Assembly (NCBI GenBank): GCA_963640685.1
Contig: CAVIAA010000001.1
Location: 2,395 to 66,394 of the forward strand
Direction of reading: 5' to 3'
Origin: Acutalibacteraceae bacterium
GTDB taxonomy: Bacteria; Bacillota; Clostridia; Christensenellales; CAG-138
DNA: 64,000 bases
Shown: positions 21,870 to 54,342 of the stretch, piece after piece
Numbering within the stretch: position 1 is the stretch's first letter
Layout of the letters: every line of letters starts with the position of its first letter
Notes under the pieces: model-generated
What the model was told of the DNA's origin: nothing
The model's database searches: none
What the model saw: the letters and a program-made list of their open reading frames with translations, nothing else
Made by a program: the position numbers and the translations under genes

Positions 21870-22110
21870 CAATATAGCGATGACGAAGAGGAGTATGCGC
21901 TTATTCCGCACAAGAGAGACGGCTCCGCCGGCTGAGAGGGCTGTTTGCATGAAAGGCGCAGAAGGTCGCTTCCGAGCTTCGGAGATGAACAAACAGTAGT
22001 TTCCGGCGGCCTCGCCACGTTACGGCGAAGGAGAGGGGCGCTCAGCGCCCAATAAAGGTGGTACCGCGGGTCCGCTCGTCCTTTAAAAAATGGGACGGAG
22101 CGGGCTTTTT
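21870..22110 (+). promoter_or_regulatory. T-box leader (tRNA-Val sensing) upstream of valS
   Basis: Stem I opening GCGATGACGAAGAGGAGTA (21877..). Specifier region GCGCAGAAG-GUC-G-CUUCCGAGC, with GUC at 21965..21967. T-box sequence AATAAAGGTGGTACCGCGG at 22051..22069. Terminator GTCCGCTCGTCC...GGACGGAGCGGGC plus TTTTT. Confidence 0.85.
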
Positions 22111-24792: not shown

Positions 24793-24796
24793 ACAG

Positions 24797-25375
24797 ATGA
24801 GCGTACTTGAGATATTCATACTTGCGGTCGGCCTTTCAATGGATGCCTTTGCAGTGTCCGTGTGCAAGGGACTTGCAATGGAGCGCATTGACCTGAAAAA
24901 GGCGGGCATAGTCGGCTTGTGGTTCGGCGGCTTTCAGGCGCTGATGCCGATGATAGGCCATTTTATCGGCACGCGCTTCAGCAGCATGATACAGTCGGTG
25001 GATCACTGGGTGGCGTTTATACTGCTGGCGCTGATAGGTATAAACATGGTGCGGGAATCCTTTGCAAAGGACGACGAGGAGGCGGAGAGCGGCTCTCTGG
25101 CCTTTAAGACGATGCTCATGATGGCTGTTGCAACCAGCATAGATGCGCTTGCGGTGGGCATATCCTTTGCCTTTCTTTCGGTCAACATAGTAAGCGCCGC
25201 GCTCATGATAGGCTGTACGACCTGCGCCATATCGATGGCAGGCGTAAAGGTCGGCAGCGTGTTCGGAACGAGATATAAGGCCAAGGCAGAGCTTATAGGC
25301 GGCATAATACTTATACTGCTGGGGCTGAAAATACTGCTGGAGCACACGGGAGCGCTTTCTGCCATAATCGGCTGA
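24797..25375 (+). CDS. mntP: Manganese efflux pump MntP
   Basis: MSVLEIFILAVGLSMDAFAVS..., with the internal repeat ...VATSIDALAVGISF. Start is the ATG at 24797, 4 nt after the valS stop. Confidence 0.85.
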   Translation: MSVLEIFILAVGLSMDAFAVSVCKGLAMERIDLKKAGIVGLWFGGFQALMPMIGHFIGTRFSSMIQSVDHWVAFILLALIGINMVRESFAKDDEEAESGSLAFKTMLMMAVATSIDALAVGISFAFLSVNIVSAALMIGCTTCAISMAGVKVGSVFGTRYKAKAELIGGIILILLGLKILLEHTGALSAIIG

Positions 25376-25456: not shown

Positions 25457-26365
25457 ATGAATCGCGAAGAGCTTGACCGTAAAGCGGCGAGGGCGAAGGA
25501 TCGCCGTATATATCATATTTGCTCGGCAAAGAGGGCTGCTGCGGCGCTTATGGCGGCGGGTCTTCTCTGCTCTGCTGGCTGCGCCAAAAAGCAGGCCGCA
25601 GAGGACGACACCTATGTAATGGTGGATATAGGCTACTTCAACGAGGAGAACTACGGCGACGACACAACGTTCGTTGCGATAACCGGCGGGTTTTCAACGC
25701 CGGAGCCTGCGGTAACGCCTGTTCCGACGCCGGAGCCAACGGCAAAGCCGCGCAGCACAAAAAAACCGAGCAGCACCGCAAAGGCGGACAAAAAAGAAGA
25801 GACAAAGAAGGAAGAAAAAAAGACCGAGGAGGAGAAGGCCGAGGCTACGCCAACGCCTGAGCCGAAGAAAAAGACCCCATATTACAGTAGCTACACCAGG
25901 CAGTCGCTTTCATATGAGAGCGGTTCGTCTGCTGTGAGCTTTGAGACGACCACATTTGACGGCAGCAGCGTCAGTGAGAGCATCTTCAGCAAGAGTTTTG
26001 TCACCATGATAAACATATGGACGACTACCTGAGCGTCCTGCATGCAAGAGATGGGTGATCTCTCAGAACTCGCAAAGGAATATAGCGGCAGCGGCTTCAG
26101 GATATATGGCCTTGCGGCGGATGTTACGCCGGATTCCTCAACGCTTATAGCCAGCGCAAAAGCCCTGTTTGAATCGGCAGGGGGCAGCCATACCAACCTT
26201 ACCTGCAGCACCAGCGCCCGCAGGGCGATGATGGACGGCGTGAGCGTCGTGCCCACGACCAAGTTTTATGACTCGGAGGGCAAGCTCATAACCGTCGTTC
26301 ACGGCGCAAAGAGCAAGCAAAAATGGATAGATATAATTGAGACGGTGATGAATGAAAAAGCGTAG
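25457..26365 (+). CDS. Exported TlpA/ResA-like thioredoxin-fold protein; candidate selenoprotein with a UxxC redox motif (UGA 26030..26032 read as Sec)
   Basis: Track ORFs 25457..26032 and 26042..26365 share one frame. Read-through gives MINIWTTT-U-ASC-MQEMGDLSELAKEY, in register with the NFWATWCxPCxxEMP consensus. The C-terminal half carries VVPTTKFYDSEGKLI. The N-terminus has a signal anchor (AAAALMAAGLLCSAGC) and a PT/KE-rich linker. Confidence 0.7.
26047..26063 (+). promoter_or_regulatory. SECIS-like hairpin downstream of UGA 26030
   Basis: AGAGAU-GGGUG-AUCUCU: a 6-bp stem starting 14 nt after the UGA, with a 5-nt loop starting with G. Confidence 0.6.
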
Positions 26366-26492
26366 TATTATTTCTCTTGCAATAGCAGCGGTGGGCTTGA
26401 CCTTTATCGTCATAGGCGCGGTAAGGGGCGAGGCTGGTGCCGTTATGCAGAAGGCTGTAATGATATGCATGGAGTGTATAGGCCTTGGATAA
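26352..26492 (+). CDS. 46-aa single-TM micro-protein with a C-terminal CxxC (resembles, from memory, the 'CD1871A-family CXXC' small proteins)
   Basis: Absent from the ORF track because it is under 60 aa. Translation: MKKRSIISLAIAAVGLTFIVIGAVRGEAGAVMQKAVMICMECIGLG. It overlaps the upstream stop by 14 nt and the downstream start by 8 nt. Confidence 0.65.
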   Translation: MKKRSIISLAIAAVGLTFIVIGAVRGEAGAVMQKAVMICMECIGLG

Positions 26493-27411
26493 GAAAAAGA
26501 GCAAAAAAAACAAAAATAACCACCCCTTTTTAAGGGCGAGGACCTACTTTCAGGCCTGCTGGACGCTGCTTACAAACAGCTATGCCTCAGGCTTTATAAA
26601 CGGAACGATATATCAGGGCGGAGTTAAAAGCGTGTGCGTGCCCGGGCTGAACTGCTATTCCTGCCCCGGCGCGTGGGGCGCCTGCCCGCTGGGCTCGCTG
26701 CAGAACGCACTTGCGGGCAGGGTGCAGGGCTTCCCGTTTTACGTCGTAGGGACGCTGATAACGATAGGCGCGCTGCTGGGCAGGATAGTCTGCGGCTGGC
26801 TGTGCCCGTTCGGCCTCGTGCAGGATCTTCTGTTCAAGCTGCCGCCAAAGCGGAAAATACGCGCGCTGCCCGGCGAAAGATATCTGCGCAAGCTGCGCTA
26901 TGTGATACTCGTAGTCATGTGCATACTGCTGCCGATGCTGGTAAAAACATCCTACGGCCTCGGTATGCCGTGGTTCTGCAAGTGGATATGCCCCTCAGGA
27001 ACGCTGCTGGGCGGCCTGCCGCTCTTTGCGCTGAACGAGAGCCTGCGCAGCGCTGTCGGCTGGCTGTTCAGCTGGAAGCTGTTCCTGCTGGTCGTGATAC
27101 TGCTATGCTCTGCGCTCATGTTTAGGCCGTTCTGCCGGTATCTGTGCCCTCTCGGCGCGATATACGGGCTTATGAACCCCGTGTCCCTCGTAAGGATGCG
27201 GGTGAGCAGGAGCCGCTGCACGCAGTGCGGCGCCTGCCAGCGTGCCTGTGGGCTGGATATACCGGTATACAAGGAGCCTAACTCGACCGACTGCATACGC
27301 TGTGGAAAGTGCGTCACGGTATGCCCGAGCAGCGCGCTGAAGCTGAACGTTGAGCTGAAGGGCAGGCGCAAGCGCAGGCGTACTGCCGAGGAGAGCGCGG
27401 ATGAGGTATGA
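26485..27411 (+). CDS. NapH/YccM-like membrane polyferredoxin (4Fe-4S binding protein)
   Basis: Four CxxCP/Cx3CP motifs (CYSCP, CGWLCP, CKWICP, CRYLCP) between TM segments. Two ferredoxin motifs follow: CTQCGACQRAC and CIRCGKCVTVCP. The TTG start is 8 nt after GGAGTG. Confidence 0.8.
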   Translation: MDKKKSKKNKNNHPFLRARTYFQACWTLLTNSYASGFINGTIYQGGVKSVCVPGLNCYSCPGAWGACPLGSLQNALAGRVQGFPFYVVGTLITIGALLGRIVCGWLCPFGLVQDLLFKLPPKRKIRALPGERYLRKLRYVILVVMCILLPMLVKTSYGLGMPWFCKWICPSGTLLGGLPLFALNESLRSAVGWLFSWKLFLLVVILLCSALMFRPFCRYLCPLGAIYGLMNPVSLVRMRVSRSRCTQCGACQRACGLDIPVYKEPNSTDCIRCGKCVTVCPSSALKLNVELKGRRKRRRTAEESADEV

Positions 27412-53301: not shown

Positions 53302-54342
53302 ATGAACAACGACGTTCGCCTGACCTCGATGACATCCTGCGGCGGCTGAGCTGCCAAAATAGGTCCGGGAGTGCTGGACGCAATGCTTTCGACTCTGCCG
53401 AAAAATTCCGACCCGAGGCTCATAGTGGGCTTTGACACGGCGGATGACGCGGCAGTATATAAAATAAACGACGACACGGCGATAATTCAAACCGTGGATT
53501 TTTTTCCGCCGATGGTGGACGACCCGTATACCTTCGGTCAGGTCGCGGCGGCCAATGCGCTCAGCGACATATATGCGATGGGCGGCGAGCCAAAGCTGGC
53601 GCTTAACCTCTTCTGCTTCCCCTCAAAAAAGCTGCCGGAGGAGGCCATAAAGGCCATCCTTGCAGGCGGGGCGGATAAGGTGCTTGAGGCGGGGGCGATA
53701 CTCTGCGGCGGGCACACTATCGAGGATCCGGAGCCGAAGTACGGCCTTGCCGTTACCGGCTTTGTGAACCCGGGCAGGGTGCTTTCGAATGCATCTGCAA
53801 GGGAGGGCGACCTGCTGATACTTACAAAGCCCATCGGCAGCGGCATACTGACGACCGCGGCAAAGGCGCAGCTTCTCTTTGGTGAGCAGGAAAAGCAACT
53901 GATAGCCACTATGACGGCGCTAAACGCAAAGGCGCAGCGCTCAATGATGAAATTCGATATCAACTCCTGCACCGACATAACCGGCTTCGGTCTTATGGGG
54001 CATGTGCGCGAAATGGCGGAGGGCAGCGGGCTCACGGCCGAGATAACGGCGGACGCGGTGCCGATGCTGGATGGTGCGCTGAGCTTCGCAAATATGGGCA
54101 TAATACCCGCCGGCGCGTACCGCAACAGGGAATTTATCGGGGAAAAGGTCAGCATACGGGAGGACGTGGACAGAGCCGTTGCCGATATACTCTTTGACCC
54201 GCAGACCTCCGGAGGGCTGCTCATTAGCCTGCCGGAAAAGCAGGCATACGCCCTTTTGGAGGATATACGGAGCCATACGCCTGCCGCCGCCATAATCGGC
54301 CGAATGAAGGCCAAGGGATGGTATGCGATAGAGGTAATATAA
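53302..54342 (+). CDS. selD: Selenide, water dikinase SelD, Sec-containing form (UGA 53347..53349)
   Basis: MNNDVRLTSMTSCGG-U-AAKIGPGVLDAML continues in frame into track ORF 53371..54342. The GxG[C/U]xxK active-site loop and the AIR-synthase-like body are present. Confidence 0.88.
53363..53379 (+). promoter_or_regulatory. SECIS-like hairpin downstream of the selD UGA
   Basis: GUCCGG-GAGUG-CUGGAC: a 6-bp stem (one G-U pair) starting 13 nt after the UGA, with a 5-nt loop. Confidence 0.55.

Follow-up and report, generated by a model that had tools for sequence, protein, structure and literature searches.

Results

The window carries two genes with an in-frame UGA followed by a hairpin

In the window, the 64,000-nucleotide stretch of DNA analyzed here, an in-frame UGA followed by a short hairpin is found both in a thioredoxin-like gene and in selD (Table 1). 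When the UGA is read through, the thioredoxin-like gene codes for a protein with a lipoprotein-like N-terminus (…LLCSAGC), a low-complexity linker rich in Pro, Thr, Lys, and Glu, and a Trx domain. The redox motif of this domain is W-T-T-T-U-A-S-C with the predicted Sec at U192. Gene callers cut the gene at the TGA into two open reading frames, 25457..26032 and 26042..26365, which share one frame with TGA GCG TCC TGC in between. The read-through product matched the Pfam families AhpC-TSA (1.7e-07, 31.6 bits with a cut-off of 26 bits) and Redoxin (1.4e-05), and the NCBIfam families ResA (1.8e-10), DsbE, and TlpA. SaoT was rejected as its identity, NF040730 being absent from its NCBIfam matches. 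Searching a protein database with the read-through product gave no more than two weak matches, likely because gene callers truncate the Sec forms.

Table 1. Genes, Sec codons, and hairpins discussed in the text. Positions are those of the window unless preceded by a C label.
Feature	Position	Strand	Description
Exported TlpA/ResA-like thioredoxin-fold gene, predicted selenoprotein	25457..26365	+	302 aa after read-through
UGA of thioredoxin-like gene	26030-26032	+	in-frame, very likely read as Sec; first Cys position of CxxC
Spacer, thioredoxin-like gene	26033-26046	+	14 nt between UGA and stem
Putative bSECIS upper stem-loop, thioredoxin-like gene	26047-26063	+	AGAGAU/GGGUG/AUCUCU, 14 nt after UGA; AGAGAT 26047-26052, GGGTG 26053-26057, ATCTCT 26058-26063
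selD, selenide water dikinase, Sec-containing (U16)	53302..54342	+	TIGR00476 3.9e-123 (410.6 bits), NF002098 1.9e-109
Sec-UGA of selD	53347-53349	+	in-frame; Cys here in Cys-type selD of the order
Putative bSECIS upper stem-loop, selD	53363-53379	+	GUCCGG/GAGUG/CUGGAC, 13 nt after UGA; GTCCGG 53363-53368, GAGTG 53369-53373, CTGGAC 53374-53379
GrdB	C18:1766		TIGR01917 5e-208; 11-nt spacer, 7-bp stem, loop GGC
GrdB/GrdF-like gene	C13:51012		11-nt spacer, 7-bp stem, loop GGC
PrdB	C22:12125		TIGR04483 2.1e-123; 14-nt spacer, 7-bp stem, loop GUUCUUG
SaoP, Sec-containing ABC permease	C18:27476-28342, TGA 27646	-	NF040733 2.9e-99

SelD is a classical selenoprotein. The first-pass annotation, made from the letters of the window, had taken the selD of the window for one as well, and this was borne out both by its TIGR00476 match and by the Cys that Cys-type selD genes from this order have at the Sec position. 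The window is part of a draft genome of 1.86 Mb (49 contigs, 92% complete), in which tRNA-Sec (C22), selA (2.1e-182), selB (2.2e-109), and selD (3.9e-123) are encoded. As TGA closes 394 of the 1226 long open frames in this genome, it is an ordinary stop codon in this bacterium and is recoded only locally.

Upstream of the thioredoxin-like gene is mntP (24794-25372). Immediately downstream, the region 26352-27411, which overlaps the 3' end of the gene, encodes a 46-aa CxxC membrane protein of the CD1871A family (NF040920, 4.1e-15) and a NapH/MauN-like polyferredoxin (TIGR02163, 3.2e-23). Together with the thioredoxin-like gene, these neighbors look like an extracytoplasmic redox module. Elsewhere in the window, a T-box leader (RF00230, 118.7 bits) is found at 21871-22086 upstream of valS.

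UGA takes the place of the catalytic Cys in three clades

We searched 401 genomes from the same order and recovered Trx-domain homologs in 92. A stop codon inside a strong Trx-domain match was found in only two of the 401, the genome of the window and one from the same genus (G021), the latter with two such genes. At the aligned place, C-x-x-C-x-x-E-[ML]-P is present in all 28 Cys-form TlpA-like loci recovered in the order. Cys is also at the Sec position in two homologs, L013 and L046; L046 is a Cys paralog, the nearest further one encoded in the same genome as the window (C4:20644-21096), and reads C-S-P-C followed by E-M-P. G021 has a second Sec-form TlpA-like paralog (L045, G021:C41:2626-3075), which reads …W-S-T-T-U-G-I-C-V-D-E-M-G-R-L. 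Given this paralog and the Cys form in the genome of the window, the Sec and Cys forms coexist and turn over within the genus.

Three orthologs from MAGs, with about 70% amino acid identity, have a TGA at the same codon. A DNA pattern scan for W-x3-TGA-x2-C-x2-E-M-G across 185,579 species genomes added two orthologs, three members of the paralog clade, and two Peptostreptococcaceae genes, all in open thioredoxin-like frames. The Peptostreptococcaceae forms read …F-W-A-S-W-U-[GH]-Y-C…E-M-G-D-F. Altogether, 13 distinct Sec-form sequences retain the TGA while their flanking codons diverge. They represent three clades (the orthologs, the GICV[DS]EMGRL paralogs, and the Peptostreptococcaceae with WASWU[GH]YC), and the Sec forms of these clades share U-x-x-C-x-x-E-M-G. 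A TGA kept at a catalytic Cys across clades with diverging flanks is the classical signature of a selenoprotein. The same retention in three clades rules out an assembly error at TGA 26030.

A TlpA-like gene from another genome of the order (L047, G082:C7:47800-48800, minus strand) reads …N-F-W-A-S-TGA-C-G-P-C…, with the TGA at the Trp position of the family (WCGPC) and not at a Cys. Directly after it is an 8-bp stem, AUGCGGA…UCCGCAU. This TGA could be a nonsense mutation, an unusual position for Sec, or a case of local TGA-to-Trp reading.

Base pairing in the 26047 hairpin is conserved among the Sec forms

The hairpin at 26047-26063 is encoded by the codons for Q-E-M-G-D-L-S. A 24-nt segment, CAAGAGATGGGTGATCTCTCAGAA, is identical in three close orthologs, down to all seven of its degenerate codons. 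Over the remainder of the gene, close orthologs differ at about half of the codons that specify identical amino acids. A synonymous-site test on a pre-set range of 12 codons in four close orthologs gave 7 identical to 2 variable as compared to 46 to 44 elsewhere, which is not significant (p = 0.12); that all seven codons within the hairpin are identical is thus no more than suggestive.

Covariation in a broader set was more informative. For this, the 13 distinct Sec-form sequences were aligned and the six-pair stem was scored cell by cell. The alignment represents about three independent clades, two of which were found with a pattern that fixed the 5' arm and first loop letters (GARATGGG) and left only the 3' arm free. 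Standard pairs occupy 97.4% of the stem cells; displacing the 3' partner by one to three columns lowers this to 11-54%. None of 500 column shuffles matched the observed paired fraction or the covariation score. Pair 18-34 is A-U, C-G, or G-C, pair 21-31 is G-C or A-U, and pair 23-29 is U-A or U-G. Several of the compensatory changes alter amino acids (Q/S to D/A, and E(GAG)/L(CUC) to E(GAA)/F(UUC)). As pairing is retained through such changes, it is the pairing that is preserved and not the amino acids.

We used matches to the same DNA pattern in non-thioredoxin frames as controls. In these 109 matches all six pairs formed in none and five of the six in three. We also examined Cys-form homologs with the shared E-M context for a comparable hairpin; their best stem at this distance was 4-5 bp, and 15 of the 28 had none. 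The hairpin at 26047-26063 is therefore very likely the SECIS of UGA 26030, a structure SelB would be expected to bind. Likewise, UGA 26030 is very likely decoded as Sec, given the Sec/Cys pair at the CxxC motif, the TGA in three clades, the covariation of the stem, and the complete Sec machinery. The first-pass annotation had reached the same decoding from the likeness of the hairpin to that of selD; the evidence here is stronger than that likeness.

The residue after E-[ML] is Pro in all 28 Cys forms and Gly in the Sec forms of this clade, and the Gly codon (GGN) of E-M-G supplies nucleotides 2-4 of the loop in the thioredoxin-type hairpin. Many Sec forms with U-x-x-C-x-x-E-M-P were recovered in a second pattern scan, from the Burkholderiales, the Planctomycetota, Tepidibacter, Marinisporobacter, and others. 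Sec decoding in the wider TlpA-like family accordingly does not require Gly. In these E-M-P forms the hairpin begins at AUGCC, and its loop is several nucleotides further downstream than in the clade of the window. The Burkholderiales form, for example, reads R-F-W-A-[TS]-W-U-x-x-C-x-x-E-M-P-S-V-Q. Across many phyla (L178-L288), E-M-P Sec forms have a well-conserved 7-bp hairpin, UGCCCUC-CGUGCA-GAGGGCA.

Both hairpins fit the general bacterial SECIS model

The first-pass annotation had described the two hairpins of the window as sharing a 6-bp stem, a GNGUG loop, and a spacing of 13-14 nt, and had proposed them as a SECIS form specific to the lineage. On re-reading, the coordinates, the letters of both hairpins, and the spacing were all exact. 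The stem at 26047 has six Watson-Crick pairs; in selD the fifth pair is a G.U wobble and so the stem is not six Watson-Crick pairs. In the minimum free energy (MFE) fold of the 46 nt starting at the TGA, the hairpin is present at both sites (-9.9 kcal/mol for the thioredoxin-like gene and -12.2 kcal/mol for selD). The isolated hairpins have energies of -5.4 kcal/mol (26047) and -7.9 kcal/mol (selD). Folding had been put forward as a check on the proposal. Although both hairpins form, neither was more stable than its dinucleotide shuffles (z = +0.42 for 26047 and -0.50 for selD), so folding energy can neither support nor refute reading either one as a SECIS. Rfam gave no match at the site of either hairpin.

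In the bSECIS model used by bSECISearch, the loop is 3-9 nt, the upper stem is 4-16 bp, a G is within the first two loop positions, the UGA-to-loop distance is 16-37 nt, and the MFE is <= -7.5 kcal/mol (PMC13188914). Both hairpins agree with the model in every respect: they are within the coding sequence after the UGA, with a 5-nt loop that starts with G on a 6-bp stem, and the loop is 20 nt from the UGA in the thioredoxin-like gene and 19 nt in selD. The first loop nucleotide is G in both and the second is G in one of them. No feature of either hairpin falls outside the model, in which G-N-G-U-G is one of many allowed loops.

The minimal SECIS of Escherichia coli fdhF is a 17-nt upper stem-loop separated from the UGA by 11 nt, with a bulged U17 and, in the loop, G23/U24 (PMC8659212). 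Counting from the U of the UGA, the loops in the window are at nucleotides 23-27 (selD) and 24-28 (thioredoxin-like gene), the position also of the G23/U24 contacted by SelB in fdhF. Like fdhF, both loops contain a G-U dinucleotide, though at positions 3-4 of a pentaloop. Unlike fdhF, neither hairpin has a bulged U in its 5' arm, and the stems start 13-14 nt after the UGA instead of 11 nt.

Known UxxC selenoproteins include a Prx-like thiol:disulfide oxidoreductase (PF00578) and a thiol-disulfide isomerase-like/TlpA-like protein (cd02966) (Table 1 of PMC13188914). Similar to these Sec thioredoxin-fold oxidoreductases, the protein encoded in the window has an AhpC-TSA/Redoxin/TlpA fold, a UxxC motif with Sec first, and Cys-form homologs. 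The clostridial clade differs from that family in having E-M-G and not E-[ML]-P after the redox motif. SelD of the window is like other SelD selenoproteins in having Sec at the N-terminal catalytic position (CGGU-AAK) and a SECIS directly downstream.

The shared motif is rare in its strict form and does not identify other selenoprotein genes

To see how often the shared motif occurs, we scanned both strands of the 1.86 Mb genome (50,846 TGAs) for a strict version, defined post hoc from the two sites: TGA, 13-14 nt, 6 bp with G.U allowed, and the loop GNGUG. This gave three sites, where Markov-1 simulated genomes led us to expect about one. The Sec codons at 26030 and 53347 account for two of these sites, and at the third the frame is closed by a stop six codons on. 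With two of three sites being Sec codons, the placement of a hairpin behind both UGAs is not chance, bearing in mind that the motif was defined post hoc. A relaxed version (5 bp, spacer of 10-18) gave 11 sites, and apart from the two known Sec codons none of these was in an open coding frame. For a 6-bp stem with a G.G.. loop the count was 59 sites, and 44-68 in simulated genomes. The excess over background on which the first-pass annotation had staked its motif is therefore found with the strict version and lost with the relaxed ones, and being at background frequency they have no power to list the selenoproteome.

A scan of the genome with a covariance model had also been suggested. Our model of the thioredoxin-type hairpin (R1) scored 60.2 bits at its own site and found nothing else significant in the genome. 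With filters off, the selD hairpin was absent among the 17 matches in the window with E <= 10. The expectation that a UGA-plus-hairpin scan would enumerate the selenoproteome did not hold, as no further selenoproteins came from the motif.

We looked for further selenoproteins with a dicodon coding-potential screen for in-frame TGAs combined with NCBIfam. This recovered SelD, the thioredoxin-like gene, GrdB, a GrdB/GrdF-like gene, PrdB, and SaoP. Other high scorers look like adjacent genes in the same frame and were set aside. The motif is in none of the four genes beyond the original two (Table 1), contrary to what a form general to the lineage would have led one to expect. SaoP has the weakest SECIS of the six, a weak 4-bp stem with the loop GCUU about 25 nt downstream. 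The loops of these four genes also carry a G within their first two positions, and common to all six genes is a loop starting with G 18-25 nt after the UGA. The GNGUG pentaloop is thus in two of the six selenoprotein genes found in a 92% complete draft, a count that could change. The list of selenoproteins from this draft is probably incomplete. GrdA (PF04723) was not found in the 92% complete draft; control genomes also were without GrdA.

SaoP adjoins genes for a substrate-binding protein and a 2-hydroxyacyl-CoA-dehydratase-like protein, outside of the window. Also outside the window, the frame of a MerR-type regulator (G000:C32:2974, minus strand) runs through a TGA, …L-K-Y-K-C-TGA-Y-Y-S-Q-A…, and continues for 36 codons past it with a good coding score. 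Either premature termination or recoding may account for this TGA.

The two hairpins differ in their distribution among relatives

The selD from G021 keeps the stem and has the loop GGGUA. This loop and GAGUG differ at positions 2 and 5, each the third letter of its codon (Gly and Val, respectively). The constant letters G1, G3, and U4 are at first or second codon positions of Gly-Val and so are fixed by coding. We also compared the Sec-type selD genes from two other genera of the order (G008 and G073). Unlike in the window, their hairpins, GGGC-CGGGU-GCCC and AUAGGAC-CGGGC-GUCCUAU, are 3 nt closer to the UGA, with the same encoded peptide, U-A-A-K-I-G-P-G. Only one close relative, G021, has the selD hairpin in the register seen in the window.

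Peptostreptococcaceae and other Clostridia MAGs have the thioredoxin-type hairpin in unchanged geometry, and its loops there read GGGCG, GGGCC, GGGAC, and GGGUC. Its presence in distant Clostridia implies that this hairpin predates the lineage, and that it does not keep GNGUG.

Discussion

Each of the two hairpins is most probably an ordinary bacterial SECIS element that belongs with its gene and not to a class particular to the lineage. Each would have been inherited within its own gene family. During translation, the stem-loop 13-14 nt after the UGA is predicted to bind SelB with GTP and Sec-tRNASec. The SelB complex would then place the tRNA at the A site such that UGA 26030 (in U-A-S-C) and UGA 53347 (in SelD) are read as Sec. 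The likeness between the hairpins can be attributed to shared demands of SelB and of distance: a short stem capped, some 20 nt from the UGA, by a small loop starting with G. The likeness in loop letters can be attributed to a Gly codon (GGN) followed by a codon starting with G in both genes (Gly-Asp and Gly-Val).

Under the alternative of a lineage-specific SECIS class, the SelB of this genus would instead prefer a 6-bp stem with a GNGUG (or GNGUR) pentaloop 19-20 nt after the UGA, with the genes converging on that form. In such a scenario SelB has narrowed to the GNGUR pentaloop, the selD hairpin has moved by 3 nt to fit, and GrdB, PrdB, and SaoP are read less efficiently or through another contact. 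The strict motif is consistent with this, two of its three sites genome-wide being Sec codons, as are the retention of the stem and the G-N-G-U of the loop in the G021 selD, and the 3-nt downstream position of the selD hairpin relative to G008 and G073, which puts it in register with the thioredoxin-like hairpin. However, four of the six selenoprotein genes in the genome use other stems and loops, and the covariance model built on one hairpin fails to recognize the other. In selD, G1, G3, and U4 are set by coding, and the variation is at 2 and 5, the third positions left free, giving GGGUA in G021. The thioredoxin-type hairpin is moreover found without GNGUG in Peptostreptococcaceae and other Clostridia MAGs. 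We therefore regard both the distinct class and the narrowed SelB as improbable.

Were UGA 26030 a genuine stop, or a lesion in a pseudogene, the hairpin would be a by-product of encoding Q-E-M-G-D-L-S and its likeness to that of selD a coincidence. This reading is very improbable. In its favor, gene callers do split the gene, an ATG is present 9 nt past the TGA, the 26047 hairpin is thermodynamically unremarkable, and the family-wide E-M fixes part of its 5' arm by coding. Against it, the gene is split within the Trx fold, precisely where the catalytic Cys would be, the TGA recurs in 13 distinct sequences from three clades with diverged flanking codons, stem pairing survives changes that alter amino acids, the hairpin is missing from Cys forms that share the E-M context, and the 6-bp stem forms in none of the 109 controls that have identical 5' letters.

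With the hairpins read as ordinary SECIS elements, the result itself is an ordinary one, with no new recoding mechanism and no new SECIS class. Its value is for annotation: a redox protein that gene callers cut in two at its catalytic residue would be one exported UxxC selenoprotein. For this clade it also provides a SECIS descriptor backed by covariation, U-x-x-C-x-x-E-M-G with the stem at +18..+23 and +29..+34. As a minor evolutionary point, the change from E-[ML]-P to E-M-G, with the Gly codon feeding the G-rich loop, would be a case of coding sequence adapted to carry a recoding signal.
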